Below are positions 14,638 to 37,509 of a DNA stretch of 37,509 nucleotides, in pieces. Each line of letters opens with the position of its first letter. The stretch's first letter is position 1. The stretch spans positions 22,877 to 60,385 of the forward strand of contig PMLB01000125.1 in the NCBI GenBank assembly GCA_003158735.1, written 5' to 3'. The position numbers were made by a program, and so were the translations under genes. Under the pieces are notes generated by a model. That model was not told the DNA's origin. It searched no databases and worked only from the letters and a program-made list of their open reading frames with translations. The stretch comes from Myxococcales bacterium (GTDB lineage Bacteria > Myxococcota_A > Polyangia > Fen-1088).

Positions 14638-15840
14638 ATGGTATCACGACGCGAACGAATCGTGGTCATCGACGATACCGAGATGGTGAGGACGGTGCTC
14701 GTCCACTATCTGGAGCGGCTTGGATTTGCCACGCTTGAGGCTGCCGATGGCCAGCAGGGCCTCGATGCGATTAGGGCGAACAAGCCCGACCTGGTGCTGT
14801 GCGACCTACGTATGCCCAACCTCGACGGACTGGGCGTCTTGAAGATCCTCAAGAAGGAGTCGCCCGAACTTCCCATCATCGTCATGTCCGGAGCGGGTCT
14901 TCTCCAGGATGCGGTCGGCGCACTTCAGTTGGGCGCATGGGACTACGTGGAGAAACCCGTCGAGTTCCCGGTGCTCGAGCACGCGCTCAACCAGGCGCTG
15001 GAGAAGGCCGCGCTGGTCGAAGACAACCGTCGCTATCGAGCCCACCTCGAACGCCTCAACCGCGACCTGGAGGCCAGTCTGCGGCTCTTGGCTGAGGATG
15101 AGAACGCCGGCCGGCAGATCCAGGTGCGCATGCTGCCGCACAACCATCAACGCTTCGGCGACTACCTGTTCACTCGCGAGGTCATACCGTCTAGTCTTCT
15201 GAGCGGCGACTTTATCGATGTCTTCAAGATCGACCCGCGACATTGGGGCTTTTACCTGGCGGATGTGTCGGGCCACGGTGTCTCCTCGGCTCTGGTCACG
15301 GTCTTGCTGCGCAGCTTCGTGCAGCGCCATGTGGCTAGCTCTATCGAGTCTGGCGACGACCTAATCCTGTCGCCGGCACGCCTGCTCATGCGGCTGAACG
15401 ACGAGATGGCCCGCGATGATTTGGACAAGCATCTCACCATCTTCTACGGAGTGATCGACCAGCAAGAGGACACCTTGCTCTACGCCAATGCCGGGCATTT
15501 CCCATGGCCGGTCCTGTGCGACGGGGCTGCGGTCACAGTGCTCGAACAACCGGGCGTACCGGTGGGGATGCTGCCGCGCAGTCGCTACCAGGAGCACCGC
15601 GTGCCGCTGGCCCCCTGCATGAGCCTGTCGGTGTTCTCCGACGGTGTGCTCGAAGTGTTGTCGCAGTCGACCCTGGACGAAAAGCTCGAGTATCTGCGGG
15701 GGTTGTTCGGAAGACCGAATGTCACCATCGAGCAGGCAAGACAGGAGTTGCACCTCGACGGCCTGTCAGCCCTGCCCGACGACGTGGCGATGCTCATCAT
15801 TCAGCGTGGGGGTAGCCATGGCAACCGTACCAGCGCCTAG
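14638..15840 (+). CDS. Receiver + PP2C (SpoIIE/RsbU) phosphatase, similar to Pseudomonas-type RssB
   Basis: Receiver motifs VIDD, LCDLRMP, GAWDYVEKP. Coiled-coil linker ending EDENAGRQIQ. PP2C motifs SGDFID, LADVSGHG, FSDGV, DDVA. Confidence 0.85.
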   Translation: MVSRRERIVVIDDTEMVRTVLVHYLERLGFATLEAADGQQGLDAIRANKPDLVLCDLRMPNLDGLGVLKILKKESPELPIIVMSGAGLLQDAVGALQLGAWDYVEKPVEFPVLEHALNQALEKAALVEDNRRYRAHLERLNRDLEASLRLLAEDENAGRQIQVRMLPHNHQRFGDYLFTREVIPSSLLSGDFIDVFKIDPRHWGFYLADVSGHGVSSALVTVLLRSFVQRHVASSIESGDDLILSPARLLMRLNDEMARDDLDKHLTIFYGVIDQQEDTLLYANAGHFPWPVLCDGAAVTVLEQPGVPVGMLPRSRYQEHRVPLAPCMSLSVFSDGVLEVLSQSTLDEKLEYLRGLFGRPNVTIEQARQELHLDGLSALPDDVAMLIIQRGGSHGNRTSA

Positions 15841-18931: not shown

Positions 18932-18959
18932 TCTGTAAGGTTGAGGGGCCTCGCGCTAC
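18932..18959 (+). promoter_or_regulatory. Candidate ECF-sigma promoter (module 1, autoregulatory copy): TGTAAG-N16-CTAC
   Basis: TCTGTAAGGT-N11-GCGCTAC, identical in both blocks and in spacing to 21647-21674. Confidence 0.7.
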
Positions 18960-18980
18960 CAAACGACGTTGGCCTCTTTC

Positions 18981-19559
18981 ATGCGCAAACCGCCGCCATC
19001 TGCCTCACCCCCGAGAGAATCCTTGGATTCAGTCGGGCTGGGCTCGGCGGATTCACTGGCCGAGCTGTACGATCGCTATGCCCCGCAGGTCGAACGCTGG
19101 GCTCGCCGGCTGGCCGGCCCACGCTTCGACGCCGAGGATCTCTTGCACGACGTATTTCTGGTTGTGCTGCGCCGGCACCACGAATTCCGCGACGAGGCCC
19201 GCATCACGACTTGGTTGTTTCGTATCACAGCCCAGGTGGTGCGCTGGCGGCGCCGCAACGATGTTCTCCGCCGCTGGCTGTGGGGTCTGCACGGACAGGC
19301 ACTGGCGGAATCAAGATCCAACGGCCCCACTCCCGTCGAGGAGATTGAACGGCGCGAGGAAGGCCTGCGCCTATACGCGGCCATGGATCGCCTGCCGGAG
19401 AAGTATCGGACCGTTCTGATCCTGTCCGCACTCGAAGAATCCAGCGGCGAAGACATCGCCGCGCTGCTTGGCATCGAAACCAACACCGTGTGGGTCCGTC
19501 TGCACCGCGCCCGCGCCAAGCTGGCTGATTTGCTCACCCAAGAGGAAGGGTTGCCATGA
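18981..19559 (+). CDS. ECF-family sigma-70 factor (module 1)
   Basis: Region 2 LYDRY...DAEDLLHDVF...TTWLFRI and region 4 LPEKYRTVLIL...EDIAALLGI..NTVWVRLHRAR. Alternative TTG start at 18969. Confidence 0.93.
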   Translation: MRKPPPSASPPRESLDSVGLGSADSLAELYDRYAPQVERWARRLAGPRFDAEDLLHDVFLVVLRRHHEFRDEARITTWLFRITAQVVRWRRRNDVLRRWLWGLHGQALAESRSNGPTPVEEIERREEGLRLYAAMDRLPEKYRTVLILSALEESSGEDIAALLGIETNTVWVRLHRARAKLADLLTQEEGLP

Positions 19560-20767
19560 GCGAAAGCAAACCCACCCCCGTAGTCCTGAGGCGTGATCGG
19601 GGACTGGCCCTGGCAGACGCATTGCTGGAGAGCAACCGGCGATTGCAGCCTTTGCCTGCCGCTGCCCATGATCGCGTGAAGCGCCGGTTGCGCGCACGCC
19701 TGTACAGCCCTGCGTCCCGACGCGCGCGTTGGCTGCGTCCAGTCGTGGTTACAGGCTCACTGCTGCTCTGGGGAACCGCGTTTGGCATCGCCATCGATCG
19801 CTTCGTGATCAAACGCGATTCTTCGCCAGGTCCGCAGGTACAACCAGCCTCCGCCCCTGACAACCCTCGCGCGCGGCGATCGTGGGCCCGGCCGGAAAGG
19901 CCGATCTTTGTCGAGAGCGATCGAACAATTCCCTCTGAGCCAGCCCTTCTGCAGGAGGTCGCTGCTCCGAGTGTTGAGCCGCCCGCGCCCGCAAAACCCG
20001 CGACCACCTTGCCGCCGCTGGCCGCCCCTGCACACCCGCGGACTTCACACGCTGCAGGTCCTGTCGCGCGTCCTGCTCCGACGCGCGTTGCCTTCACAAA
20101 TCAGTCTGCGGCGACCGTCCCCGCAGCCGATCGCGAGTCTCTGCCCGCAACTGGACCGACGACTCCGCCGGCCTTGCCAGCACCGCGGGCTGAGGCCGCT
20201 GCCCCTGCCCCTGTGGCCGCGGTATTGACCACTGCTCCGGTACCGCCCCGCCCGCCCGAGAAGGCGGTTGCGCCGGCGGAGAGTCTGAGCGAGGAGCGGC
20301 TGCTGGCCGCGGCCGTGCGTTCTCTGCGCGCGAAGCAGGATGCGGCTTCTGCCTTGGCCGCCCTCGATGTCTATCAAGCCCGCTATCCGCAGGGCCGGCT
20401 GTCTGTCGAGGCGACCGTGCTCCGCATCGACGCGCTTACCGCCCTGCACCGACAACCCGAGGCCTTGCGTTCTCTCGATGAACTCGATCTCGGCCGCGTG
20501 CCAGGCGGCCTTGAGCGCCGCCTGCAGCGGGCCGAATTGCGCGCAGCCAGCGTGCGTTTTCGTGAAGCCATCGCTGATTTCGATGGGGTGCTGGCGCAGG
20601 CTCGGGGCACGGACGCCATCGAGCGCGCACTGGCAGGTCGCGCCAGGTGCCGTCAGCGACTTGGCGATGGCACAGCGGCGCGCGCGGACGCCATCGAGTA
20701 TCTGCAGCGCTTCCCCTCGGGGCCGTTCGCCCCGCAGGCGCGCGACATGGCCAAGGTAGGCCCGTAG
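19556..20767 (+). CDS. Single-TM, Pro-rich, C-terminal TPR protein; putative anti-sigma factor (module 1)
   Basis: ATGA-coupled to the sigma gene. TM VVVTGSLLLWGTAFGIAI, a Pro/Ala linker, then EERLLAAAVRSL...ALAALDVYQARYPQGRLSVEA and YLQRFPSGPFA. The anti-sigma role is inferred. Confidence 0.7.
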   Translation: MSESKPTPVVLRRDRGLALADALLESNRRLQPLPAAAHDRVKRRLRARLYSPASRRARWLRPVVVTGSLLLWGTAFGIAIDRFVIKRDSSPGPQVQPASAPDNPRARRSWARPERPIFVESDRTIPSEPALLQEVAAPSVEPPAPAKPATTLPPLAAPAHPRTSHAAGPVARPAPTRVAFTNQSAATVPAADRESLPATGPTTPPALPAPRAEAAAPAPVAAVLTTAPVPPRPPEKAVAPAESLSEERLLAAAVRSLRAKQDAASALAALDVYQARYPQGRLSVEATVLRIDALTALHRQPEALRSLDELDLGRVPGGLERRLQRAELRAASVRFREAIADFDGVLAQARGTDAIERALAGRARCRQRLGDGTAARADAIEYLQRFPSGPFAPQARDMAKVGP

Positions 20768-20782
20768 AGACGGCCGGCCCTG

Positions 20783-21646
20783 ATGACCCCCGCATCGATC
20801 GTCGCTCTGTTGCTGGCGCTGCAGCCCCATGTGGCATCTGACAGTAATTGCCCGTCGGCCCGCGATATCGAGGACAACTTGTCGGTGTTGTTGCCCGCCG
20901 AAGTGGTCCGGCCGGGAACCGCGGCCGTGATCTCGCGCGCCGATGGGCTGGCCATTCACCTGCAGCCCGAAGGTACCGAGCAGAGCGAAGAGCGATCGAT
21001 CGCGGTTGGCAGCGGCTGCGAGGAGCGCGCCAAGGCCGCGGCCGTAGCCATCGCCACCTGGTGGCCGACCCAACCGGCCGCCAGGGACAGCACGCCCGCG
21101 CCCGTGGCTGTGACGCTTGTCACGCCAGCCCTGCGCCCGAAGGCGCGTGTCGTGACTGTGGCCGCGGGTGGCTTCGCGTCGCTGATCGCCGGCAGTGCGG
21201 CTCCAGGGGTGCGCGCGGAAGTAGCGTGGGCGCCTTGGGCCAGCGCCCTGGCTTTTCGTCTGGACTTGGCAGGCACTGGCGCCCATGGCGCAAGCCTGAG
21301 TCCTGGCCAGGTACAATTCCGCCGCATGGCCGGCGAGGCAGGCGCGGCCTGGTCGCGCGGTCCCTTGCGCCTCGACGGGGCGGCAGTCGTCAGCCTGGTT
21401 TTCGTCGAGGGACAGGGCTACGCCTCGAACCAACAGTCGAGTGGGACATCCCTGGGCCTCAGCGCCGGAGGCCGCCTGAGTTGGGCCCTGGGACGCTGGG
21501 CTCCCTGGCTGGAATTGCGCGGCGTCGCCTGGCCGCAATCGCAGCGAATTTTCGTAACTGACTCGGCGACCGGAACCCGCAGCCAGCACAGCCTGCCGCA
21601 TGGCGAGCTACAATTGGGGGCCGGAATCTCGGTATCTCTGCTTTGA
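20783..21646 (+). CDS. Exported protein with a Cys pair, Pro linker and beta-strand-rich C-terminus; possible small outer-membrane barrel (module 1)
   Basis: Signal-like N-terminus, NCPS...SGCEERAKAAAVAIATW, and alternating-hydrophobic strands ending LQLGAGISVSLL. Paralogue of 33127-34137. Confidence 0.6.
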   Translation: MTPASIVALLLALQPHVASDSNCPSARDIEDNLSVLLPAEVVRPGTAAVISRADGLAIHLQPEGTEQSEERSIAVGSGCEERAKAAAVAIATWWPTQPAARDSTPAPVAVTLVTPALRPKARVVTVAAGGFASLIAGSAAPGVRAEVAWAPWASALAFRLDLAGTGAHGASLSPGQVQFRRMAGEAGAAWSRGPLRLDGAAVVSLVFVEGQGYASNQQSSGTSLGLSAGGRLSWALGRWAPWLELRGVAWPQSQRIFVTDSATGTRSQHSLPHGELQLGAGISVSLL

Positions 21647-24972: not shown

Positions 24973-27900
24973 CTACTTTTGGACGTAGATGATCTTCTTG
25001 CACGACGAGGTGCAAATACCATCGACGCCATTCTTGCTTCCGCTGTCGCACTCCTCGGGGCCGTTGGGATAACCATCGCCACAGTGGGGGCCCAACTTGC
25101 ATTGCGGAGTGCAGCCACCGTATGAGCCGTCGTTCTTGCCGTCGTCGCACTCCTCGTTTCCATTCACGATGCCGTCGCCGCAGTGAGGGGCGAAGACGCA
25201 ACTCGGGGCGCAGCCACCGTACTCGCCGTTGTTGTTGAGCGACCCGTCGTCACATTCTTCGGGCGGCTCGATCAAACCGTCGCCGCACCCACCTGGCAGA
25301 CGGCACGCGTCGGTGCAATTGGGATCGTTCGACATGGTGGGTTCGCATTCTTCCCCGTAGTCCGTGTCAATATTACCGTCGCCGCACCTGGGAGCCAAGC
25401 TGCAGTCGCTCTTGCAGGTTCCGTAGCTGCCGTCGTTGACGCCGTCGTCACATGCCTCGTCGCCATTCGTGATGCCGTCGCCGCAACGCCCGCCGCGCTT
25501 GCAGTTCGACGTACAGCCACCATACACAGCGTTGGGATCGCTGCTGGTTGCGTTCTTAGCGCCGTCGTCGCACTCCTCATCGAAGTCGGTTTGCACCACG
25601 CCATCGCCACATCGTGCGGGCAGCTTGCACCCTGGGGCGCAGCCCTTGGCTGAGCCATAGTCGTCGCTGTTGATGCCGTTGTCGCACTCCTCGCCGTCAC
25701 TGACCACGCCGTCGCCGCAATAGGGTCCCCACTTGCACTGCGAGGTACAGCCGGTGTACGCGGGTTTGTCGTTGGGACCCGGGCAGCTCGCGGGAGCTGT
25801 GCCGGTCCCGTCGCCGCAGTCGCACTCTTCCCCGCCCGTCACCACGCCGTCGCCGCAGCGAGGCTGGCAGGCGGATCGGGTCGTCGTGAAACCACTTAGG
25901 GTGAGCTGGTAGTTCGACTCGGGCGGGTGCCGGTCAGCGCCGAAGATCGCGATCTCGTAGACCTTGCCGGTGACCAGCCCCAGCGGGACGGTGCGCACGC
26001 GGAAATCATCCCCGTCCTTGGCCGTCGGAGGCAGGGGGGTAGTGTTGGTAGGCGAACAGGCGGCTGAGCCAGCGGTGACCCCAGTGATGTTTCCTGTTGC
26101 GTCGAGGCAGCCACCTTCCGTGACACTGGCGTTGCCGCCGGTTAGGTCGCTGACCGTCACTTTTCCAGGCAACTGCTGGTGGACGCCGCCGAGATCGAGG
26201 ACCAGAACGCCATTGATGAAGATGAAGAGATCGTCGTCGCCGTAGAAACTGAGACTGATGCCTGCGGCACCGTTGTAGACGAAGTAGTAGCGCGCCTCAT
26301 CAGTGAAGTAATTGTCATGCTTGACGCCGGGAGTATTTGCGACCCAGCAGCCATTGCTCAGCGGATTCTGGTTTGGGCAATCCGCCTGGACCACGCGCGG
26401 TGGGAAGAAATACTGGTCGCCTTGGCAGGTGGCCCAGATGGCAACGCCACTGCTATGGTTCCAGTAGGGCCATAGGTCACATAGCGTGACCTGGCTGGGA
26501 TTCAGCGGGTCGAGGGGGTAGAAGCCATTGTCCGGGCCAGCTAGATGCGTCTTGCTGGCGTACTGGTAGACATTTCCGCCGATGCTGGTCATTTCGAGAA
26601 CGTCTGTGAAGGTCTTGTTGACCGTGTTGTCATCGTTGAACCACTGCTTGAAGCTGGCGGCATCTTTGAATGCGGGTGTCGTCCCCAACCAAACCGGGCC
26701 GCCCGGGGTGCTCTGGGTATAGCGGACCAGTGTGCCGGCAGAAACGCCAGCGTTGCCGGTCACGATGACAGCCGTGCCGATATTTCCGCCCAAATAGCCG
26801 CCAGCCCCGTTGGAAAGAGGACTGTCGTTGCCGGCCTGGGTGTAGCCGCTGGGGATGTGGAGCGCAGCATTGCCGATGTTCCAGTCACTGAACTGGCAAG
26901 CGCAGGTCGTCGTGGTACCGGGCTGCGGCTTGCCGTTCAACAGATTCGCAGCCACGATTCCCCAACAACGTGCGGTCGAGTCGTTGCCCTTGGAAGGACC
27001 GCCCGAGTTGGGAACACAGATGGTCGTGGGCGAAGTCGAGGGCGATTTCTTCGTGCCCAGGAAAAAGAAGTCCGGGTGCCCGCCGGGAGAGACGTTTTCC
27101 GGCTGGAAGTCACGGTAGGTGATGGGGAGTTCGAGGCATTGTCCTGAGCCCGATTTGCACGTCGAGGAGTCCTGGGCGGTCGCAGGCGGGCAAGCGAAGC
27201 CACCTTCAACCTTGCACTTCGACGAACAACCATCGAGGTCCACCAAGTTTCCATCGTCGCAATCTTCGCCTGGATCGAGGTTTCCGTCGCCGCAGGCCGA
27301 GGTACAGGCCTGGGTCTTGCCCGTCGTGGGGTCCTGGCAGCTCGGCTCCTTGGTGCAAGTCTTGGAGCAGCCCTTGCCGTCGCCATAGAAGAGCCCGTTT
27401 ACGGCCTTGCATCCGGTTGGCAGATTGTTCGGGTCAATGCCGCAGTCGCACAGCTCGCTCTTCTCCACAATTCCGTTGCCACACTTGGCCGTTGTGCAAG
27501 TCTGTCCCGCCGTCGGACAGTCAGCGCCGGGCTCGATCTGGCAGGTGCTGGAGCAGCCATCGCCACTCGTGGTGTTGCCGTCGTCGCACTGTTCGCCTTT
27601 GAGGACCTTGCCGTCTCCGCACTTGGCCGTGCACGCCTTGCCAACCACCCGACACTGGAAACCAGTCTCGACCGTCTTACAATCGCTCGAGCAACCATCG
27701 CCGCTGACCGTGTTGCCGTCGTCGCACTGTTCGCTCCCTTCGAGCGCGCCATTGCCGCACTTGACGATCGGGCAGACGCACAACTGGCCCGGGGTACAAA
27801 CGCAGCCCGCGCCCTTCATCTTGCAGTCGGCCGAACAGCCGTCGCCATCCTTCATGTTGCCGTCGTCGCACACTTCGCCAATCGAAAGCTGGACAACGCC

Positions 27901-28599
27901 ATCACCACATCGTGCGTCCGGCTTGCAGGGAGCGCCTGGCGTCGGGCAGCTCCAACCGGCCTCGACCTGACAAACGCTGCTGCAGCCATCGCCGCTGTTG
28001 CTGTTGCCGTCGTCGCACTTTTCGCCCGATTCGATACGCTTGTTGCCACACTGGGAAACCAGGGTGCAAGGTTGTCCGGGGACACATTTGTAGCGGGGGT
28101 CCTGCACGGTGCAGGTAGAATTGCAGCCGTCGTTGTCGAGAGTGTTGCCATCGTCGCAGACCTCACCCGCGCCGACGACTTTGTCGCCACAGATGACCAG
28201 TCGCTGGCAGGCCCCCGCGGGCGGACATTTCCAGTGGGGCTCGACCTTGCAGGCACCATTGCACCCATCGCCGGGCAAGGCGTTTCCGTCGTCACACTCC
28301 TCGATGCCATTCTGATTGTTGATTCCATCGCCGCAGGCCTCAGGATACTCGGCCTTGCAGCCCAGAGTGCTGTCGCTGTTGCAGACCCCAGAGCCGCTCG
28401 TCGTCGTCGTGCCGCCGGACGAGGAGGCGATGGTCGAGATGATGTTTCCACCGAGCGCTCCGGCCGCGCCAGAATTCCCACCTCCCACGCCTCCCCCACC
28501 GCCTCGCGCACCTCCGTTGTTTTCTACCTCCGAGCTGTTACAGGCAGCTGCCGCCAACACAAAAAGGAACATTGCATGGCCGGTGTGGGCTGTATTCAT
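24973..28599 (-). CDS. Large lipoprotein with myxobacterial Cys-rich repeats (DUF4215/Myxo_disulph type) and a central fibro-slime (PA14-like) domain
   Basis: Lipobox LAAAAC. I count 8 CG(D/N)x..E.CD repeats before and 8 after a central domain containing [14 protein letters not shown]...[23 protein letters not shown]. Confidence 0.88.
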   Translation of the reverse strand: [1208 protein letters not shown]

Positions 28600-28938: not shown

Positions 28939-30360
28939 TTACCTCAGCCACCGCCGCAAGACGACCCACCGACAGCCGCGAACTACAGTGTCATGAAACT
29001 GCCACACGATGAAGACGTAGAACACCGGCTCCAAGAAGAATTTGAAGCGGTGGTTTTCGCCCTGCTCGCATAAGATGGAAATCGCAAAAATGTAGAACGC
29101 CGGCAATAGCATTGCCACTCTGCAGGCGTAGTCCTTCTCCCTCCGCCCTTGCGCAAGCCATATCACACCCGCCAAAGACAAGAGAACAATCAAGACTGGC
29201 CCAGAGAAGATCAAGTCGTAGACGGACTTCCACGGAAGCAGCTCGATGTGCTTGCGCGGGGAGTAGGTGCTCGACGGACGCCAGTAGATCTTGAGGTTGT
29301 TGTAGTAGGCACTGAGAAGGACCGCCACAGGAGCTGTCGTGAGGTAGGTCTTGTATTCACTCTCAAGCTGCCTATCGAACTCTACGTAGCAGAGCCTATT
29401 GTAGTTGAGGCTGCCGTCCAGCTTGTTCTTCCGCGTGAGGACTCTTGGCAAAGCACTGGGCAATTCTCCGTCTGGGTCAACCTCGTAGGGCCAGGTGTAC
29501 TTCATGACTCCAGCGGAACGGACCAGATTGAGTCCGGTAAAGGTGGATGTGCTGAGGAGCCCAAACTGGCCGTATTGCTTCGCCACGTACGACCCACAGA
29601 TTCCGCCAGTTATCAGCAAGAAAAGCACCACCGTGCGCCACGGCACCTTCAACAAGTATAGAGAAACAGCCATAACCAAGAGAAAGGGGAGTTGAAAGAG
29701 CGACCTGAAGAAGAACAACAATACCGACGAAGCGGTGACCGCAAAGATGGAGGGACAGCCGCGTCTCAGTTTCCACAAGGAATAGTACATCCACAGAACA
29801 AGAACGCTGGACAGCAATGTGGTATCCAATAGTGTTGAATACACCAGGGCGGCGGGATGGAGCAGGAACAAGAGGGAGGCAAGAAGGGCAATTGTCTTTC
29901 CCACCAGGCCTGACAGCCAACGGAACATGAGCAGGCCGCACACGCCGTAGAGGATTGACCACACAAGATACAGGGCGTCGTCCACCTGCTTGAGAGCGGC
30001 GTGTATGTCCAGGGAGGGCCAGAGATGGACGAGAATGGCCCTGGCGAGGTCGAACCCCGGAGGCTGAATGTGAATATGGGTGAGTGATTCGAGGGGCGAG
30101 TCGCGGAGGTCCAGTATCGACACGGTCTGCATGAGGGTCTCGGACGAAAACCACTCGCGTTGGTGACCGTCGGTCAAATAGGGTTGGGCCTGATGTCGCA
30201 AGGCCACTTGAAACAGGAGGCCGAAGATCAGAATGGCAGCGCCAGCGAGGGGAAGCTTCCTTGCCTTGTCGATGATGGAGCGCAAACTGGCCTTGCCAAT
30301 CTCGCGACTGAGGCGACTGGTGTCGCGGGAACCTGCTCCTGGTGACTCGGAAGGGACCAC
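28939..30360 (-). CDS. Polytopic membrane protein, GT-C fold (ArnT/PMT-like) glycosyltransferase candidate
   Basis: Roughly ten TM stretches, HIQPPG in the first loop, and ENHRFKFFLEP before the last TM. Visibly more AT-rich than its neighbours. The start codon is uncertain. Confidence 0.55.
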   Translation of the reverse strand: MVPSESPGAGSRDTSRLSREIGKASLRSIIDKARKLPLAGAAILIFGLLFQVALRHQAQPYLTDGHQREWFSSETLMQTVSILDLRDSPLESLTHIHIQPPGFDLARAILVHLWPSLDIHAALKQVDDALYLVWSILYGVCGLLMFRWLSGLVGKTIALLASLLFLLHPAALVYSTLLDTTLLSSVLVLWMYYSLWKLRRGCPSIFAVTASSVLLFFFRSLFQLPFLLVMAVSLYLLKVPWRTVVLFLLITGGICGSYVAKQYGQFGLLSTSTFTGLNLVRSAGVMKYTWPYEVDPDGELPSALPRVLTRKNKLDGSLNYNRLCYVEFDRQLESEYKTYLTTAPVAVLLSAYYNNLKIYWRPSSTYSPRKHIELLPWKSVYDLIFSGPVLIVLLSLAGVIWLAQGRREKDYACRVAMLLPAFYIFAISILCEQGENHRFKFFLEPVFYVFIVWQFHDTVVRGCRWVVLRRWLR

Positions 30361-30480: not shown

Positions 30481-31698
30481 TCAGCGGGTGCAGCCTGGCC
30501 ACCAGCAAGGAACCGTGCGGCTCCAATCGGCTATCGCTCGCCAGCGCGGCGTATCGTCCTCGACGGTTTCCAGCAGGCCGTACACGCTGCCGTCGCCGCC
30601 GCGAACATCGACGTAGTGGTGAAAGAGCGTGCCACCCAGTGCTTTCCAGCGGCTCAGCATGTCTGCGTACACCTGCTGCATGCGCGGATGCCGCGCCACC
30701 TGGCGGCGGAACTCGGCCGTCGCGCCAGTCTGGTTGTATCCCAAGTCGATACCCATCGAATACGCGGTGAACACCAGGCCGTGCGATTGAGCCAGATCCA
30801 AGTCCGCCGCCACATCCGCGGCCATGTTGGCCGTCACGTCGGCAGCCAGCAGATCGACCGCCTGGTCGACGCCTGCCGCGCCCTGCGATTCCAGCGTTGT
30901 CCAGCTATCAACGTTGCCACTGAAGAATCGGCTGACGGCGTACTCGTCGAAGCCGTGTTGCCAACAGACCTGGTTGCCTTCGTTCACCCACAAGGGACAT
31001 TCGATCGCTTGCTGTCCGACACCGCTGTTTCCGGCCTGGGCCACCACGACGCAACGGACACGATGGCGTCCTGTCGCACCGAAGACCTCGTTCTTGAAGA
31101 TGTCGCAGGCCTGCGCCAGGCGCATGCCCGCCCACTCCGCCGCGCACCAGTCCGTCACGTTCCAGCGGGCTTGGCATTGGGCAAGCGCATATTGGGCGCG
31201 GCCATTCCAGTATTCATCGCCGATCTCGATGCGCGCAATCAGCCCCGGATCCAGATTGTCCCGTAAGTATTCCGCAAGGCCGCGCAAGTAACCATCCGTG
31301 GCTTGGGCAGGAATGCTGAACCAGCAGTCGACCTGCGCGCGGTTGCAGATCGCGACCAGAACCTCGATGGGCGCGCCCCGGTCGGAGTCCAACCAGTTGT
31401 CGGCTAGCTGGGTCCGCGTGTTCCACTCGGTGACCGATGCCGAATCCAGGGTGTCGCCCCATCGGATGCTGCGCATCTGCCCTAGCTTTTCAAGATAGAG
31501 CGGATTGAAGGCCGATCCGTCGGCCAGTCCTGCGGCGGTGCGGTTGGTTCCAAGGTAGTTGTCGCCGTCGCGCACCCACAGCCAGGTGCCGTCCACGCCA
31601 GCCGAGCTTTTGTCCGCGCCCATGCGAGCCACGTAGAGATCGCCGCTGCACGCCGCGAAAGCGAGCAACGCGAGCGCAACCAACCAACGCGCGTGCAC
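30481..31698 (-). CDS. Lipoprotein, clan GH-A-like glycoside hydrolase homologue with a degenerate active site (putative pseudoenzyme)
   Basis: Lipobox FAAC. Collinear with 34320-36089 (ICNRAQVDCWFSIP vs LCNRAHVDYWINVP; LDPGL vs LDPSL). It has IEIGDEYWN in place of IEYSNEVWN and AYSMG in place of SYEGG. Confidence 0.75.
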   Translation of the reverse strand: MHARWLVALALLAFAACSGDLYVARMGADKSSAGVDGTWLWVRDGDNYLGTNRTAAGLADGSAFNPLYLEKLGQMRSIRWGDTLDSASVTEWNTRTQLADNWLDSDRGAPIEVLVAICNRAQVDCWFSIPAQATDGYLRGLAEYLRDNLDPGLIARIEIGDEYWNGRAQYALAQCQARWNVTDWCAAEWAGMRLAQACDIFKNEVFGATGRHRVRCVVVAQAGNSGVGQQAIECPLWVNEGNQVCWQHGFDEYAVSRFFSGNVDSWTTLESQGAAGVDQAVDLLAADVTANMAADVAADLDLAQSHGLVFTAYSMGIDLGYNQTGATAEFRRQVARHPRMQQVYADMLSRWKALGGTLFHHYVDVRGGDGSVYGLLETVEDDTPRWRAIADWSRTVPCWWPGCTR

Positions 31699-31703
31699 CA
31701 GGC

Positions 31704-32525
31704 CTACCGTCCTCGCAACGCCTGACGAGCCTTGCTGGCGAAGTTACCCTGCGGAAAACGCGAGATGATCTGCCCGAGATCGGAGCGTGCGCCCGCACTG
31801 TCGCCCAAGCGTGATCGACAGGACGCGCGTCCCCACAGCGCCCGTTCCTCCAGCGCATCGCCAGAGCCGTCAAGGCCCGAGCCGAGATCAGCAACGGCCT
31901 GGTTGCAGCGGCCCACTGCACCGCGAAGCTCACCACGCAGCACGGCCAGCTCGCGTGCCCGCGGAAGTTCCGTCAACTGCGTCCGGTCGAGGATCTCAAG
32001 TGCGTGGACGCGATCATCCAGCTCCAGAAGCGCATCGATGCGTGCCAGGGTTGCTTCGCGCGAGAGGGTTCCGTTCGGGAATCGCTTGCCGTACTCGTCG
32101 AGCGCGGACAGCGCCGACCGTGCGTCGTGTTGTTGCCGCAGAAGCTGGAGTGCGGCGGTCAGCAGACGCGATTCCTCGGCGATGCTGCTGGGAACCGGCT
32201 CCACGGCGAGCACCGGGTTGCGCGCAGGCGCCGCTGGTTGTGGCGGCGTGGTCAACCGGGCGACACGGCCCCGCAACAGCACCGTGGCAGCAACAGCACC
32301 CGACACCGCGACCAGCAGGCCTGCGGCCAGCGCCAGGCGCAACATGCGCATTCCTTGGCGTCTGCGCGAGCCGTGCAGTTTGTCTGCCACCCGAGACAGC
32401 AGCTGGGGATCGCCTGTCGGCACCATGGCTGCCTGCCGTATCAGATCGCCGGCCCGCTGCTCGAGCGGCGGACTCGTTGGGTCGTGGTCGCTCCAATGCT
32501 CGTGAATCGGGCTGCTGTCGTTCAT
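31704..32525 (-). CDS. Single-TM, C-terminal TPR protein; putative anti-sigma factor (module 2)
   Basis: ATGA-coupled to the sigma gene. TM LALAAGLLVAVSGAVAATVLL, then EESRLLTAALQLL...ALSALDEYGKRFPNGTLSREA...RFPQGNFA. Paralogue of 19556-20767. Confidence 0.7.
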   Translation of the reverse strand: MNDSSPIHEHWSDHDPTSPPLEQRAGDLIRQAAMVPTGDPQLLSRVADKLHGSRRRQGMRMLRLALAAGLLVAVSGAVAATVLLRGRVARLTTPPQPAAPARNPVLAVEPVPSSIAEESRLLTAALQLLRQQHDARSALSALDEYGKRFPNGTLSREATLARIDALLELDDRVHALEILDRTQLTELPRARELAVLRGELRGAVGRCNQAVADLGSGLDGSGDALEERALWGRASCRSRLGDSAGARSDLGQIISRFPQGNFASKARQALRGR

Positions 32526-33088
32526 GGGGCCTCCCTCCTCTCGATGCGCTCGAGCTCGCGCAGAAACTGGGCCCGTGCTCGGCGCAGTCGCACCCAGATT
32601 GTGGCCAACTTCATTCCCGTCAGCTTCGCGACATCCTCGCCCGACATCGACTCCATTTCGAACAGAATCAGCACGCTCCGATACTTCTCGTCCATCCTGT
32701 CCAGGATCCGGTAGACGAGCTCGACCGACTGCTGGCGCTCGATCGACTCGACCGGGCTGGTCGTCGAGGAATTGAGGGCACGTCCAGCTTCCTCGGCGCG
32801 GTGCAAACCGAGCCAGCGCAACTTGCGGTCTCTGCGCCGCCGGTCAAACACGATGCGCTCGGTGATACGGTACAGCCAGGTCGTTATCTTGGCATCGCCG
32901 CGAAATTCATGCAGCCGGCGCTGAACCACCATGAAGACCTCATGGACCATGTCTTCAATGTCGGAATGCGGCCCGGCCAGCCGCGCAATCCAGTGCATCA
33001 CATCGGGCGCATGGACTCGGTAGATTCCGTCGAGGTCGAGCGGAGCCACGTACTCGTTCGCTGCCACAGTGGACTCGGCGCAGTTCAT
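32522..33088 (-). CDS. ECF-family sigma-70 factor (module 2)
   Basis: IYRVHA...DIEDMVHEVF...TTWLYRI and MDEKYRSVLILFEME..SGEDVA...ATIWVRLRRAR. ATG 33088 is chosen because the promoter motif lies at 33101-33126. ATG 33130 is the alternative. Confidence 0.92.
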   Translation of the reverse strand: MNCAESTVAANEYVAPLDLDGIYRVHAPDVMHWIARLAGPHSDIEDMVHEVFMVVQRRLHEFRGDAKITTWLYRITERIVFDRRRRDRKLRWLGLHRAEEAGRALNSSTTSPVESIERQQSVELVYRILDRMDEKYRSVLILFEMESMSGEDVAKLTGMKLATIWVRLRRARAQFLRELERIERREAP

Positions 33089-33100
33089 TCCGCCAGTCTC

Positions 33101-33126
33101 GTGTCGGTCGAGTTCGGAACCTTTCA
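33101..33126 (-). promoter_or_regulatory. Candidate ECF-sigma promoter (module 2, autoregulatory copy): TGAAAG-N16-ACAC
   Basis: The minus strand reads TGAAAG gttccgaactcGACcg ACAC, directly after the stop of 33127-34137. It matches 34275-34300. Confidence 0.65.
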
Positions 33127-34137
33127 TCATAAACGTCCTAGGCTTGCACCCAGGATCACATTGATGTGCAGGGCCGGCAACTCGTAGCCCATGGACGGGA
33201 TGCCTTCGATTCGCAGCGTCGTGCGATGCGGCCAGCCTGAGGCGGCGATTTCCAGCCAAAATGCGTGTCGGCGACCGCAGAGCAGCGCACGTACACCGGC
33301 CCCGGCGCCGACGTCCATACCGAAGTCGCTGAGATCGTTGGGATAGCCTGACCCAGCCGCGACTGCGGCAGCCAGCAACGCCTCGGCGTGCAGGTCGATG
33401 CGCAAACGCCCCCCGCCAGCGCGAAAACGCGGCCCAGCTTGAAATTCGGCTCGCGTCCAACGCGCGTTGCCCAGGCCGATCGGCGACGTGCGCAGCCAGT
33501 CAACTTGAAGGGCCGCTCGCAAACCCCAGCGCCAACCAGCCGGAGAGCCCGTGCCTTGCAAGGCCAGTGTCGGCGCAAGGAACGACGCCCACGACAGGCC
33601 AGCCCCAGCGCCAAGGTCGAAGACTGCCGACGGTGGAAGAAACGGCGGTGCAGGTGGGGGCAGCGGATGTGGCGGTGGTGGCGGTGGCGGCGGCAACTCT
33701 GGCGGCGGTGGCGCCGGCGGCGGCTCTTGGCGCGGGCTGGGAGAGTGAGGCGGGGGGAGTCGTGGCGGGGGCAACAAGTGGATGGGCGGAGATTGACGAT
33801 TGAGCTCGGGCGAAGGAACCAGCGCCGGCCTGAACTCGGCCTCCCACGCCGCGACTACGGCGGCGACCGCTGCAGCGAGATCCCGACACGACGCCGAGGC
33901 CGCGAGGTGGCGTTCTCCGAGCAACCCACCGTCATCGCGCCGCAACTCGATCCTGATTGTCTCACCCTCGGTCGACAACACCGCACGATCCGGCGACGTG
34001 CCCTCGGCGGCGTCAGGAAGTAGCCGCCGCAGTCTTTCGGCGACCTCAGCGGGATCAGGACAGGTAGCCGTTCCCGAGACCGTCACCATGGGATGCGCCA
34101 GCAGCAGCACCAGCAGGGTCTGGGCGATCACGACCAC
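33127..34137 (-). CDS. Exported protein with a Cys pair, poly-Pro linker and beta-strand-rich C-terminus; possible small outer-membrane barrel (module 2)
   Basis: TLLVLLLAHP signal-like start, TCPD...ASCRDLAAAVAAVVAAW, a poly-Pro linker, and strands ending INVILGASLGRL. The start is placed at GTG 34137 (or 34131) by alignment with 20783-21646. Confidence 0.6.
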   Translation of the reverse strand: MVVIAQTLLVLLLAHPMVTVSGTATCPDPAEVAERLRRLLPDAAEGTSPDRAVLSTEGETIRIELRRDDGGLLGERHLAASASCRDLAAAVAAVVAAWEAEFRPALVPSPELNRQSPPIHLLPPPRLPPPHSPSPRQEPPPAPPPPELPPPPPPPPHPLPPPAPPFLPPSAVFDLGAGAGLSWASFLAPTLALQGTGSPAGWRWGLRAALQVDWLRTSPIGLGNARWTRAEFQAGPRFRAGGGRLRIDLHAEALLAAAVAAGSGYPNDLSDFGMDVGAGAGVRALLCGRRHAFWLEIAASGWPHRTTLRIEGIPSMGYELPALHINVILGASLGRL

Positions 34138-34274
34138 CCCGTGGGTCGCCGAACCGTCGGCCAGTGAGCTGCTTCTTCCACGTCTCAGAGTTAGCGCGCA
34201 CAGGCCGGCACGGTCAACGGGTGAAGCACAAGGTCGGCCGAGACGGGCCCAACGCATCGGCCCATCAAGAAAGG

Positions 34275-34300
34275 TGAAAGTTTTCTCACCTGACAAACAC
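34275..34300 (+). promoter_or_regulatory. Candidate ECF-sigma promoter (module 2, target copy): TGAAAG-N16-ACAC
   Basis: TGAAAG ttttctcacctGACaa ACAC, 19 nt before ATG 34320. It is overlapped by the inverted repeat AGGTGA...TCACCT (34272-34291). Confidence 0.65.
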
Positions 34301-34319
34301 TGGCAGCCAAGGAGCCACA

Positions 34320-36089
34320 ATGATCGCGACAAGAACTTCCCGTCTGGCCACGCTGATTGGGTTGGGCCTGGTCCTGGGTTGCAGTTCCCCCGGAGGCGGT
34401 GTTTCCGGATCAGGAGGCACCACAGGATCTGGCGGCAAACCGGGCACTGGCGGCACATCGGACGCTGGAGGCGTCCAGGGTTCGGGCGGCACCGCCAGCA
34501 GCGGTGGAATAGTCAACGGCGCCTCAACTGGTAGCAGCGGAGCGACGGCGACAGGCGGTGAGACAACTAGCATTGGTGGCACGACAGATACAGGTGGCGC
34601 GACGACTGGTAGTGGCGGCGGCGTGAGCAGCGGTGGCACGGCTGGCGGCGGTGGAGCGACGGCGACAGGCGGCTCCACGAATGGCAGCGGCGGACGCACG
34701 GGCTCAGGTGGCGCGACAACGGGTAGCGGCGGACGCGCCGGCTCAGGTGGCCCCACGACTGGCAGTGGCGGACGCTCGGGTTCAGGTGGCGCGACGATTA
34801 GCAGTGGCGGACGCACAGGCTCAGGTGGCACCACGTTGGCCAGCGGGGGAACGCAAGGGTCCGGGGGACAAGTCACGGGCGGGCGTACCGGCTCGGGAGG
34901 TGTGCAGGGCACCGGCGGCACGCCAGGCACCGGCGGCTCGACCTCCACGGGCGGCACGCTAGGCACCGGCGGCTCGTCAAGCACCGGCGGCTCGACCTCC
35001 ACGGGCGATCTTGTCAACCCCGCTCCCGGCAGCAAGTTCTTCATCGGCGCGAACTTTTGGAACGAGGGATGGGAACCAGCGAGCGACTTCTTCTCCAGCA
35101 ACGTCAACTGGGCAACGACAACCAACCCATGGAACCCCACGCTGCTGACCGACCTTGCGCCCTATGCACACGTTCTGCGGTTCATGGACTGGAACAGAAC
35201 CAACGACCAAGTCGCTGGCAGTTGGGCAGCGCGCGCCCAGCCCAACGTGGCGCCGGGAGATCGCGGCGTGGCCTACGAATGGCAGATTGATCTGTGCAAC
35301 CGCGCTCACGTCGACTACTGGATCAACGTTCCCACGCTTGCCGACGATGACCACGTGACCAAGCTCGCGCAATTGATTCAGCAGAAATTGGATCCAAGTC
35401 TGCGCATCTACATCGAGTACTCGAACGAAGTGTGGAACGGCGGGTTCCCGCAAGCGACCTACGCCGACAACCAAGGCGTGGCGGCGAACATGCCCGGCAT
35501 GAATCAGTGGTACAAAGGGTGGGCCTGGTATGTGTACCGCGCGGTGCAGATCTTCCAGGGTTTCGAGGCTGTGTTCGGCAAGAACAGCCCACGCCTGGTC
35601 AAAGTCCTCTCAGGCCAGGCCGGCTACACGGGCGATGCGAGCAATCCGGCGCCGGTCTGCGCATGGCATCTGCAGTCGCTGGCCGACAAGACAGTCAACC
35701 CACAGAGCGAAACCATCAACGCTTACGCGATTGCGCCGTACTTCGGAGGCACAGACACCACCGCGCTCGCCAGTGATATCCCGGATGAAGCGACGCTGGT
35801 GCAGAATCACGTCGCGTGTTTGAAGGGCACGGGCATTCCCCTGATTAGTTACGAGGGAGGGCAGGACTCGTACGCGGCGACCAGTTGCACCGCGGTCGCT
35901 ACCGATCCGGCGATGACCAACTTGTATGTCACATATTTGAACTCCATGATGTCGGCGGGACTGTTGGGCCCGTTCATGCAGTACACGCATGTCGGCAATT
36001 GCTGGGGGCTGAAGATGGCGACCGGCGATAGCAATACCAAGGCGCCAAAGTACCAAGGCGTGCTCAATTGGCTGGCCGCTCACCCGTAG
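34320..36089 (+). CDS. Lipoprotein glycoside hydrolase, clan GH-A-like (family not assignable by eye), with a long Gly/Thr/Ser linker
   Basis: Lipobox LVLGC and about 205 aa of linker. Motifs LRFMDW, IEYSNEVWN (Glu codon 35427-35429), AIAPYFG and ISYEGGQ (Glu codon 35853-35855). AAGGAG RBS. Confidence 0.8.
   Translation: MIATRTSRLATLIGLGLVLGCSSPGGGVSGSGGTTGSGGKPGTGGTSDAGGVQGSGGTASSGGIVNGASTGSSGATATGGETTSIGGTTDTGGATTGSGGGVSSGGTAGGGGATATGGSTNGSGGRTGSGGATTGSGGRAGSGGPTTGSGGRSGSGGATISSGGRTGSGGTTLASGGTQGSGGQVTGGRTGSGGVQGTGGTPGTGGSTSTGGTLGTGGSSSTGGSTSTGDLVNPAPGSKFFIGANFWNEGWEPASDFFSSNVNWATTTNPWNPTLLTDLAPYAHVLRFMDWNRTNDQVAGSWAARAQPNVAPGDRGVAYEWQIDLCNRAHVDYWINVPTLADDDHVTKLAQLIQQKLDPSLRIYIEYSNEVWNGGFPQATYADNQGVAANMPGMNQWYKGWAWYVYRAVQIFQGFEAVFGKNSPRLVKVLSGQAGYTGDASNPAPVCAWHLQSLADKTVNPQSETINAYAIAPYFGGTDTTALASDIPDEATLVQNHVACLKGTGIPLISYEGGQDSYAATSCTAVATDPAMTNLYVTYLNSMMSAGLLGPFMQYTHVGNCWGLKMATGDSNTKAPKYQGVLNWLAAHP
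34683..34838 (+). repeat. 4 x 39-bp intragenic tandem repeat encoding GSGGRxGSGGxTx
   Basis: Units start at 34683, 34722, 34761 and 34800. They are in frame, within the linker. Confidence 0.85.
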
Positions 36090-36132
36090 ATGCAGTTCCT
36101 GCTCAACGGACACCGGCAGACGAGGAGACAGA

Positions 36133-37509
36133 ATGATCGCAGCAAAGACGTCCCGTTCGGCCACGCTGATTGGTTTGTGCCTGGTCCTGGGTTGTAGTTC
36201 TGGCGGGGGCGGTGGTGTTTCGGGATTGGGGGGCACCACCGCAGGGTCGGGCGGCACGAATGAGTCGGGTGGCAAGCAAGGACCTGGTGGCGCACCTGAC
36301 ACTGGTGGCGTCCAGAACCCGGGCGGCACCACAGGCAGCGGCGGCTCGCCTGGCAGCGGCGGTGCGACCGCTTCAGGTGGCGCGACAACTGGCGGCGGTG
36401 GTGCGACGGCTTCAGGTGGCGCGACAATGGGCAGCGGTGGTGTAACGGCTTCAGGTGGTGCAACGTCGGCCAGCGGTGGAACCCAGGGCTCCGGAGGACA
36501 GGGCACGGCTGGGCGTAATGGCGCGGGCGGCACGACGGGCGCAGGCGGCACACAAGGCGCGGGCGGTGCGACGGCTTCAGGTGGCACAACCGCCGGCACT
36601 GGTGGACGCGCAGGTTCAGGTGGTGCAACGTCGGCCAGCGGAGGAACGCAAGGCTCCGGAGGACAGGGCACGGCTGGGCGCTCTGGCACGGGCGGTGCGA
36701 CGGGCACAGGCGGGCGTACTGGCACGGGCGGTGCGACGGGCACAGGCGGCACACAAAGCACGGGCGGAGCGACGACCGGCAGCGGCGGGGCGCAGGGCTC
36801 GGGCGGGACAACGGGAAGCGCGACCCGTCCCAGCTACAACATGGGAACGGGATTTTTCGTGCTGAACGGAAAGCTCTACGACGCCAACGGCGTGGAGTTC
36901 AGGATCCGGGGCGTCGACCGGAACCACTACGACATGGATGCGCCAGGAATCCCGAAGACGCACGCCAACACGGAGCGCACGGTGCTTTTCTTCAACGGGG
37001 AATGGGGCAGCACCATGACCCGCAACGTCCAGGTCATGCAGCAAGACATGATCAACAATCACATCGTTCCCATGCCAGGCAACTGGGAGGGAACCTGTGA
37101 CGAGAGTACGGCGACCCTCACCACCATCGTCGACCGCTGGGTCGCTCAGGTGTCCACCTACAAGGCGCTGGACAAGTACATGATCCTCAACATCGCCAAC
37201 GAGTGGGGCCCCAGCGACAGCACCGTTTGGCGCGACTCATACGTCACCGCCATCCAGCGCCTGCGTACCGCCGGGTACACCTGCACCATCTCCGTCGACT
37301 CGGGAGGCTGCGGACAGGACAACGCCGACCTGGCGAAGTACGCACAGGCCGTATTCGACGCGGACCCACAGAAGAATGTCATCTTCGACCAGCACATCTA
37401 CGGCAACTGGGGCCTAGACGCCCAGAAGCAGAGCTGGCAGCAGGGCCTCATCGCCGGGTTCGACGCACTGGTGGCGACGGGCCTTCCGGTGATCATCGGT
37501 GAGTTCGGC
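36133..37509 (+). CDS. Lipoprotein GH5 (subfamily 8-like beta-mannanase) with a long Gly/Thr linker; runs off the window end
   Basis: Not in the ORF track because it has no stop. Manual translation: MIAAKTSRSATLIGLCLVLGC, about 210 aa of linker, then GFFVLNGKLYDANGVEFRIRGV, ANTER, ILNIANEWG, VDSGGCGQD, FDQHIYG and LPVIIGEFG. GAGGAG RBS. Confidence 0.88.
   Translation, partial: MIAAKTSRSATLIGLCLVLGCSSGGGGGVSGLGGTTAGSGGTNESGGKQGPGGAPDTGGVQNPGGTTGSGGSPGSGGATASGGATTGGGGATASGGATMGSGGVTASGGATSASGGTQGSGGQGTAGRNGAGGTTGAGGTQGAGGATASGGTTAGTGGRAGSGGATSASGGTQGSGGQGTAGRSGTGGATGTGGRTGTGGATGTGGTQSTGGATTGSGGAQGSGGTTGSATRPSYNMGTGFFVLNGKLYDANGVEFRIRGVDRNHYDMDAPGIPKTHANTERTVLFFNGEWGSTMTRNVQVMQQDMINNHIVPMPGNWEGTCDESTATLTTIVDRWVAQVSTYKALDKYMILNIANEWGPSDSTVWRDSYVTAIQRLRTAGYTCTISVDSGGCGQDNADLAKYAQAVFDADPQKNVIFDQHIYGNWGLDAQKQSWQQGLIAGFDALVATGLPVIIGEFG
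36451..36680 (+). repeat. 65-bp intragenic direct repeat (165-bp period) in the linker
   Basis: 36451-36515 versus 36616-36680, with three synonymous differences. Encodes SGGATSASGGTQGSGGQGTAG. Confidence 0.85.

Follow-up and report, generated by a model that had tools for sequence, protein, structure and literature searches.

An outer-membrane barrel, ECF sigma and anti-sigma factor module of a Polyangia-type myxobacterium, with a nucleophile-less glycosidase homologue as a possible ligand-binding component

What might a glycosidase homologue without its catalytic nucleophile be doing in the operon of a sigma factor? The question is raised by a stretch of 37,509 nucleotides (hereafter the window, numbered from its first letter) from a Myxococcales bacterium of the Polyangia (assembly GCA_003158735.1, contig PMLB01000125.1, positions 22,877 to 60,385). 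Four minus-strand genes, for an outer-membrane barrel protein, a sigma factor of the extracytoplasmic function (ECF) class, a predicted anti-sigma factor that bears tetratricopeptide repeats (TPR) and a lipoprotein, lie there opposite two plus-strand lipoprotein hydrolases of the glycoside hydrolase (GH) type. This divergent layout had been described in an earlier note on the same DNA, and every gene described in it is present. The observation is real and goes beyond chance, a sigma-dependent wiring of the locus is well supported by comparison with its relatives, and a sensor role for the dead hydrolase is offered as a hypothesis. That the locus as a whole is a self-contained regulatory cassette of a Polyangia-type myxobacterium, one copy of a barrel, sigma and anti-sigma triad expanded in the lineage, seems to us an even bet. 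The contig belongs to a genome bin of 82% completeness, the window ends where the contig ends, and its G+C content is 60-70% over most of its length. The features on which the argument turns are the following.

30481..31698, minus strand: pseudo-glycosidase lipoprotein of 405 residues (homology to the 589-residue protein, motifs)
31704..32525, minus strand: predicted anti-sigma factor of 273 residues (TPR_6 match, one transmembrane helix, adjacency to the sigma gene)
32522..33088, minus strand: ECF sigma factor of 188 residues from ATG 33088 (Sigma70_r2, Sigma70_r4_2, TIGR02937)
33101..33126, minus strand: P_sig, promoter-like ECF-type motif (TGAAAGGT..ACAC) ending 12 nucleotides upstream of the sigma ATG
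33127..34131, minus strand: outer-membrane barrel protein of 334 residues (structure model, fold matches, orthologue starts)
34189..34217, minus strand: conserved block TTGACC-N17-CTAACT upstream of the barrel gene (read from alignment and sequence)
34275..34300, plus strand: P_B, promoter-like motif resembling P_sig (TGAAAGTT..ACAC) ending 19 nucleotides upstream of the hydrolase ATG
34320..36089, plus strand: active-looking lipoprotein hydrolase of 589 residues (SNEVWNG and SYEGGQ motifs; model resembling clan GH-A)
36133..37509, plus strand: GH5 beta-mannanase-like lipoprotein, cut by the contig end (PF00150)

The evidence for the wiring comes from a bipartite motif shared by the sigma gene and the divergent hydrolase gene. 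The earlier note had drawn attention to two exact copies of TGAAAG-N16-ACAC in the window, against 0.04 expected, a pattern that was defined from these two sites themselves and is hence weak evidence alone. Its recurrence elsewhere is more telling. Across 29 module-bearing sources (414,047 bp), exact TGAAAG-N16/17-ACAC has 22 matches, where 100 first-order Markov resamples averaged 0.65 and never exceeded 3. Half of these (11 of 22) stand just before a sigma start and the other 11 before neighbouring genes. The latter are the DUF4215-like gene in C46-type modules of four genomes, genes on L025 (two matches), L028 and L029, and the 589-residue hydrolase gene in the three copies of this block; 16 of the 22 matches fall outside those three copies. 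At the barrel-sigma junctions of type-1 modules, TGAAAGGT-N14/15-ACAC recurs with unrelated spacers, and type-2 modules carry a related TGTAAGG-N16-CACC, read by eye, before the sigma gene. Ahead of the 589-residue gene, both a genome of another genus (G067) and a metagenome contig (L046) keep GGTGAAAGTT and ACACTGGCAG, while the spacer and the remaining intergenic region diverge. Because the motif recurs ahead of paralogous sigma genes and of the genes beside them, it appears well founded on comparative grounds that sigma acts on its own promoter and on the divergent enzyme operon, as the earlier note had proposed, and a family-wide promoter is a well-founded reading of the motif. We regard the sigma-dependent wiring as quite probable. 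Over the whole genome the motif has 16 matches against about nine expected from composition, of which only four, at the C74 and C46 modules, look like sites. A blind enumeration of bipartite motifs upstream of each module's first gene returned orthologue echoes only.

The placement of the motif also suggests how the genes are grouped. Its TGA is often the stop codon of the barrel gene, with the sigma ATG following, in the window 12 nucleotides after the motif. No copy with up to two mismatches lies within 300 nucleotides before the pseudoenzyme, barrel or GH5 gene, and three units are therefore likely: the barrel gene by itself, the sigma, anti-sigma and pseudoenzyme genes together, and the hydrolase with the GH5 gene. 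The sigma stop codon overlaps the anti-sigma start (ATGA), an arrangement of translational coupling; the pseudoenzyme gene starts 5 nucleotides after the anti-sigma stop, and the GH5 gene 43 nucleotides after the 589-residue gene. In type-1 modules, the gene that follows the anti-sigma gene has its own motif at or just after the anti-sigma stop in 9 of 20 cases and none in the other 11, the three copies of this block included, so that the lack of a motif is not special to the pseudoenzyme. For the barrel gene, the block TTGACC-N17-CTAACT may be a housekeeping-type promoter; a consensus promoter scanner did not flag it. In metatranscriptomes, contigs from four runs include portions of each of the six genes and extend across the junction of the pseudoenzyme and anti-sigma genes, with carry-over of DNA possible.

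The two regulatory proteins are recognisable from their domains, as the earlier note had stated in describing an ECF sigma factor beside a TPR protein with one transmembrane span; all the matches concerned lie above cut-off. The sigma protein matches Sigma70_r2 (2.9e-12), Sigma70_r4_2 (1.7e-11) and TIGR02937, sigma70-ECF (78.7 bits, cut-off 42.9), and with sigma2 and sigma4 domains only in 188 residues it belongs to the ECF class (group IV). Its start was placed at ATG 33088 from the barrel-sigma junctions of paralogues, the position of the motif and the N-termini of paralogues. The motif copy on the sigma side shares bases with an upstream ATG that is in frame. Two in-frame ATGs, at 33130 and 33127, coincide with the stop of the barrel gene, and a longer form of the protein is possible. 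The ratio of non-synonymous to synonymous substitution rates (dN/dS) is 0.13 for the sigma gene and 0.34 for the anti-sigma gene. The predicted anti-sigma factor begins with a short cytoplasmic segment, some 60 residues that include a conserved PIxxRW motif; a single hydrophobic span leads to a periplasmic part of about 190 residues that carries the TPR (TPR_6, 28.6 bits, cut-off 26.3). In its family alignment, 30 of the 31 invariant positions lie within the C-terminal TPR half, and a profile search of the PDB returned generic TPR proteins only. Pfam searches found neither a zf-HC2 nor an RskA-type anti-sigma domain (down to E = 0.1), the mark of class I/ZAS anti-sigma factors, in the 273-residue protein, and no RsgI_N domain. 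TonB_dep_Rec, Plug, STN and FecR matched none of the six proteins; the earlier remark that no FecR domain, TonB receptor or carbohydrate-binding module is recognisable thus agrees with the Pfam scan.

The third member of the triad is an exported protein whose fold was predicted by modelling. Its true start is GTG 34131, giving 334 residues, and orthologues of 73-84% identity begin at MIAQTLL. The protein consists of a signal peptide, a periplasmic alpha/beta N-domain, a disordered proline-rich linker and a C-terminal beta-barrel. In the AlphaFold2 model (pLDDT 84.6, 33 aligned sequences), residues 16-100 form a beta-alpha-beta-beta-beta-alpha domain, which holds a conserved cysteine pair and an AAWEA motif, and residues 170-333 are modelled at pLDDT above 90 as roughly 8-10 strands. 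The barrel resembles the transmembrane domain of OmpA as well as OmpX, Ail and OmpW, with target-normalised TM-scores of 0.65-0.71 for OmpA, OmpX and Ail. By this likeness of fold we judge it a small outer-membrane beta-barrel, a class defined by 8-10 strands, a signal peptide and a C-terminal aromatic residue; orthologues end in LGRF and the window copy in Leu. Sequence-family searches of PDB, Pfam and NCBIfam found no match for the protein, and dN/dS of its gene is 0.28.

Is this triad dedicated to glycans, as the earlier note had assumed in describing a glycan-sensing system? The survey of relatives speaks against it. The genome holds nine barrel paralogues and nine anti-sigma-like open reading frames, with six pairs side by side. 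Among 24 other genomes of the family, 23 have barrel matches; the overall figure is 28 of 41 genomes, with 1-18 matches in each. We mapped 30 barrel loci with hidden Markov models, a set made up of the 20 best loci in relatives, this genome's own paralogues and the copies of the present block. Sigma and anti-sigma genes adjoin the barrel in 27 of them (two others are cut by sequence ends and one has neither), in the order barrel-sigma-anti-sigma at 21 loci and sigma-anti-sigma-barrel at six. What follows the anti-sigma gene varies: FG-GAP, DUF1592/DUF1588-type and DUF4215-like proteins, proteins of no family, and GH54 arabinofuranosidase-like proteins (in G005 and G003). It is this variable slot that the pseudoenzyme occupies, and among the 89 genomes of the family the hydrolase-like family adjoins a triad only in this block, as far as examined. 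Judged by these comparisons, the triad is a generic multi-copy module and not a glycan-specific one.

Some individual loci of this survey deserve a record. A second triad, in the order sigma-anti-sigma-barrel, lies on the plus strand of the window itself (sigma about 18969-19556, anti-sigma-like 19556-20767, barrel 20783-21646); TGTAAGG-N16-TACC at 18935 precedes its sigma gene, and a 732-residue protein of no family follows, the locus as a whole spanning 18933-21646 and continuing to 23882. The slot genes resembling GH54 arabinofuranosidase B are at L017 3760-5100 (G005) and L030 9746-11173 (G003). The G005 gene is preceded by a copy of the motif with one mismatch, which begins at the stop codon of the anti-sigma gene, and that of G003 by none within two mismatches; the G005 copy retains the residues that we take to be catalytic and looks intact. 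At L025 (G016) 6989-11370, a barrel gene stands without adjacent sigma and anti-sigma genes and is followed by two motif copies and genes of the DUF1552 and DUF1592 families, a locus that may be a target read in trans.

The association of the genes at this locus is conserved in related genomes, as the earlier note's reading demanded. Orthologues of the pseudoenzyme were found in two of 88 other genomes of the family, G009 (96% identity) and G067 (88%), besides a 41-residue fragment in G072. In G067, five genes from pseudoenzyme to hydrolase are collinear at 80% nucleotide identity, with protein identities, in that order, of 88, 75, 89, 76 and 89%. The flanks of this block are unrelated, convergent genes, and GH5 is absent beside it. 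The full gene order, including GH5 and the downstream genes, is found on metagenome contig L046 (17.9 kb). For comparison, ArgC is 68% identical to its counterpart in G067 and 88% identical to that of G001, a genome of the same genus that is without the block; this single comparison suggests that the block was transferred between genera as a unit, and the cassette is probably horizontally mobile. Genome-contig scans with the barrel protein and with the protein P0002 gave no match. Decay has also occurred. In G009 and on metagenome contig L050, a deletion of about 667 bp has fused the barrel, at about residue 277, with sigma at about residue 152, and its presence in both a genome bin and an independent metagenome contig marks it as a real population variant. 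G009 also lacks the remaining barrel and the hydrolases at the site and has no other copy of the family. From this comparison the cassette is accessory and can decay, sigma loss and enzyme loss going together in G009. The fusion is located at L014 (G009) 10168-11574 and at L050 1-280.

Several observations weigh against the proposed wiring. The two window sites are alike at 18 of 26 positions, a likeness equalled by 23 shuffles and 73 random real pairs out of 300 each; the part of the earlier claim that relied on the likeness of this pair is thus not significant alone, and the two exact copies and the family-wide recurrence are what stands. Conservation of the motif is inflated where its TGA doubles as the stop codon of the preceding gene. 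The C46 module in the same genome uses the same motif, so that cross-talk is possible and this sigma is only the presumed cognate one. The N-terminus of the anti-sigma protein matches no known anti-sigma domain family in Pfam, and the metatranscriptome contigs resolve neither transcription starts nor strand nor single transcripts. The deletion in G009 and L050 removes sigma region 2 and leaves the frames of anti-sigma and pseudoenzyme intact; with its sigma lost and the pseudoenzyme kept, the latter may not need this sigma. Lastly, P_B overlaps a 20-bp inverted repeat, AGGTGA-N8-TCACCT, a possible operator for another regulator. The element before the hydrolase could then be the operator of an unrelated dimeric regulator, its likeness to the sigma-side site coincidental and the hydrolase outside sigma control, a reading with which both the palindrome and the statistics of the pair agree. 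Yet at least four other module types have this bipartite motif, with no palindrome, before neighbouring genes; G067 has both promoter boxes intact and a change in one arm of the repeat; and the hydrolase travels with the sigma block between genera. We consider the operator explanation improbable and retain control of the hydrolase by the sigma factor.

What, then, is the 405-residue lipoprotein? Its homology to the 589-residue hydrolase, claimed in the earlier note together with the loss of the nucleophile, is borne out by BLASTP (2e-19, 26% identity) and by a Ser in the nucleophile column. Against the family consensus motifs EYSNEVWNG and AYEGGQ, it has GDEYWNG and AYSMG(I): the acid/base Glu is kept, the preceding Asn is replaced by Asp and the nucleophile Glu by Ser, and the Gly and Gln after the nucleophile position are lost as well. 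The NE pair and the nucleophile Glu are present in 190 of 203 family domains, instances drawn from the best 150 family representatives and relatives, where this protein has DE and S. It thus lacks the nucleophile Glu on strand 7 by which clan GH-A is defined, and still agrees with its family at each of the 15 positions found invariant in an alignment of 40 sequences. Its departures are confined to the exchanges of Asn and Glu and to the two residues that follow the nucleophile. The substitutions are shared by the orthologues in G009 and G067; in an 84-member cluster at 90% identity, AYSMG is found in 15 of 15 members listed, and GDEYWNG in 11 of the 11 listed members that cover the site. With dN/dS values of 0.14 against G067 and 0.09 against G009, the pseudoenzyme is a maintained protein under selection, and a decaying pseudogene was rejected on these values.

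The protein is also a distant branch. Its nearest relative, P0002, is 49% identical with motifs intact, and a tree of 202 domains groups the two with a support of 1.0. By tree distance from the 589-residue enzyme it ranks 198th of 201, and a recent duplication of the neighbouring enzyme was rejected on that tree. The term paralogue used in the earlier note therefore holds for homology only, the two proteins being among the most distant members of the sampled family, and a common substrate of the dead and the active protein, which the note had supposed, is not implied.

That the 405-residue protein might be an enzyme by another route has to be weighed here. GH20-type enzymes use substrate-assisted catalysis on 2-acetamido sugars, and the Asp-Glu pair could serve a switched mechanism of that kind. 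The two exchanges, Asn to Asp and Glu to Ser, co-occur and are fixed in every orthologue seen (within the listed cluster members counted above), and purifying selection is strong. Yet DE/S is confined to one orthologue group among the 203 domains, without any recurrent switch, and the loss of the Gly and Gln that follow also speaks against catalysis. The other nucleophile-less copies in the family have AD/S, NE/N, SE/A or QS/Q. We hold a switched mechanism to be very improbable, and a non-catalytic binder to be rather likely. Consistent with the latter, 4 of 27 multi-domain family proteins pair a nucleophile-less copy with a canonical one, and such mixed proteins fit a role of binding helper for the dead copies.

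Whether such a binder feeds the sigma pathway is a separate question. In the model of the earlier note, the pseudo-glycosidase is the primary receptor for the substrate or product of the enzymes; the barrel and the TPR anti-sigma factor pass its signal on, and sigma is released. Several features suit this model: the pseudoenzyme lies inside the sigma/anti-sigma transcription unit without a promoter motif of its own; its pocket residues are kept, its nucleophile is lost and its sequence is under purifying selection; its tether is short against the linkers of about 200 residues in both enzymes; and the linker of the anti-sigma factor is unusually short in this module. There is also a precedent, in that PMC6852018 describes GH10 and GH5 modules as sensors on RsgI anti-sigma factors. 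The family comparison points the other way. Other triads have no pseudoenzyme, and their slot holds FG-GAP, DUF1592-type, DUF4215-like or apparently intact GH54 proteins; the absence of a motif before the slot gene gives no distinction, being common to 11 of 20 type-1 modules; the pseudoenzyme is far from the active enzyme in the domain tree; and among paralogues the TPR domain shows strong conservation, a sign of a shared partner and not of module-specific ligand carriers. A complex prediction with the pseudoenzyme, the periplasmic domain of the anti-sigma factor and the barrel N-domain gave no support (score 0.01, mark 0.32) and weighs neither way. We therefore view a primary receptor with some doubt, and a protein that gives the anti-sigma factor its signal, or acts on that signal by feedback, as an equally tentative proposal. 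That the pseudoenzyme is only a co-induced glycan-binding helper is a possibility to which we would give slightly more room; helper and input or feedback roles are comparably likely. The broadest version, in which a nucleophile-less glycosidase is the glycan receptor of an undescribed three-tier ECF pathway and the slot gene sets the signal sensed by each member of a Polyangia triad family, strikes us as rather unlikely.

From these comparisons we infer promoter activity, protein contacts and a ligand, which can be assembled as follows. The core would be an outer-membrane barrel with a periplasmic N-domain on a proline-rich linker, a single-pass TPR anti-sigma factor and an ECF sigma factor. 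The anti-sigma factor would hold sigma, and the barrel N-domain and the TPR domain would communicate across the periplasm, a contact for which the conserved surfaces of both proteins give some indirect support. Once released, sigma would use TGAAAG(G/T)T-N14/15-ACAC at P_sig and P_B. The former would drive the sigma, anti-sigma and pseudo-glycosidase genes as one unit, and the latter the gene of the lipoprotein hydrolase opposite, joined in this genome by the mannanase-like GH5 gene; for the barrel gene there would be a promoter of its own. The pseudo-glycosidase would be a non-hydrolytic ligand-binding lipoprotein made together with the enzymes.

Such an architecture recalls several known systems without coinciding with any. 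As in FecA/FecR/FecI and in the SusC-like/anti-sigma/ECF systems of polysaccharide utilisation loci in Bacteroidota, an outer-membrane protein with a periplasmic N-domain is combined with a single-pass inner-membrane anti-sigma factor and an ECF sigma that acts, in the cassette by prediction, on adjacent genes, which in the polysaccharide utilisation loci degrade glycans. The cassette differs from FecIRA in having no TonB-dependent 22-strand transducer, plug, STN or FecR domain: its barrel is of OmpA/OmpX size, the periplasmic part of its anti-sigma factor is TPR, and no sigma motif precedes its barrel gene. With the biomass-sensing SigI/RsgI of Clostridium thermocellum it shares many paralogous sigma/anti-sigma pairs tied to polysaccharide-degrading genes and, as predicted from the motif, autoregulation of the sigma operons. 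It differs in its ECF sigma (sigma2 and sigma4 only), in the absence of RsgI_N, in a diderm host with an outer-membrane component, and in a hydrolase-like protein that is a separate lipoprotein, whereas the GH10 and GH5 sensing elements described in PMC6852018 are modules of RsgI. A myxobacterial case is DdvS/DdvA of Myxococcus xanthus, an ECF sigma and a single-pass anti-sigma factor with periplasmic TPR repeats, the only distinctive likeness being this TPR-bearing region; according to PMC11506125, DdvA has a periplasmic TPR-CHAT part of about 900 residues and a ZAS domain and controls defence genes. The anti-sigma factor of the cassette, in contrast, has a periplasmic part of about 190 residues and no CHAT domain, and goes together with a barrel. 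In the main-text passages covered from the ECF reclassification (PMC7826278), TPR are named only in connection with ECF42 extensions and an ECF267-linked FecR-like protein. No description of the triad, or of a pseudo-glycosidase in an ECF operon, was found in the literature searched, the supplements of PMC7826278 on group contexts and promoters, which may bear on this, lying outside the search.

If the wiring holds, these loci represent a new signalling family of ECF modules that act across the envelope and have a promoter code that can be read, from which the regulons of uncultured myxobacteria of soil and peat could be predicted. The locus also offers a natural pseudoenzyme, derived from a glycosidase and kept by selection within a regulator operon, whose binding and signalling are directly testable. 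Being compact and seemingly mobile between genera, the cassette could serve as a portable glycan-responsive switch.

Beyond its regulation, the locus points to a very large unclassified hydrolase-like family. In the 589-residue protein, some 200 linker residues (of 204 counted, 86 are Gly, 39 Thr and 36 Ser) precede a domain like those of clan GH-A. The AlphaFold2 model of this domain is of moderate quality (pLDDT 68.4, pTM 0.76, only four aligned sequences) and forms an alternating beta/alpha barrel, with Foldseek matches to GH79, GH26, GH51 and GH5 at E of about 1e-6 and TM-scores of about 0.55. Its SNEVWNG and SYEGGQ motifs align with nearly invariant family columns. Like the retaining enzymes of these four families, it would combine a (beta/alpha)8 fold with the NE pair on strand 4 and the nucleophile Glu on strand 7, and it can be called GH-like at the level of clan and predicted fold, not as a named family. 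Its dN/dS of 0.08 is the value for the gene. The pseudoenzyme, for its part, resembles a natural Glu-to-Ser version of the nucleophile mutants known in this clan, and may presumably be likened to a glycosynthase.

The family counts 10,231 representatives at E <= 0.001 in a library at 50% identity. It differs from the classified members of clan GH-A in that none of 45 scanned members matches Pfam, NCBIfam gave no match, and PDB sequence searches, with single proteins or with a 45-sequence profile, gave nothing; in the sources and in protein-atlas clusters its members are named only 'hypothetical protein'. The domain (window 34992-36086 and 30481-31698; P0005-P0153) is often repeated in tandem, with 2-5 copies in a protein of 1,000-4,000 residues.

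The second plus-strand gene is more conventional. It matches PF00150 (4.7e-14, 53 bits, cut-off 23.5), its best relatives in the PDB are beta-mannanases (such as 1wky, 3jug and 2whj; scores down to 1.3e-31), and the NEW and GEFG motifs of GH5 are visible. Two intact GH lipoproteins had been claimed for this strand; the 589-residue protein carries the NE and Glu motifs that this requires, and the GH5 gene is cut off where the contig ends. The two proteins have near-identical signal peptides, MIATRTSRLATLIGLGLVLGCSS and MIAAKTSRSATLIGLCLVLGCSS (window 34320-34390 and 36133-36200), and similar Gly/Thr/Ser linkers, which suggests a duplication of leader and linker, or their exchange, between catalytic domains that are themselves unrelated.

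Downstream of the pseudoenzyme, also on the minus strand, lie genes for a multi-pass membrane protein of 473 residues and no family (28939-30360) and for a DUF4215-repeat protein of 1208 residues with seven repeats (24973-28599); both are syntenic in G009 and L046 and not in G067. Further away, at 14638-15840 on the plus strand, a response-regulator receiver domain is fused to a SpoIIE/PP2C phosphatase domain.

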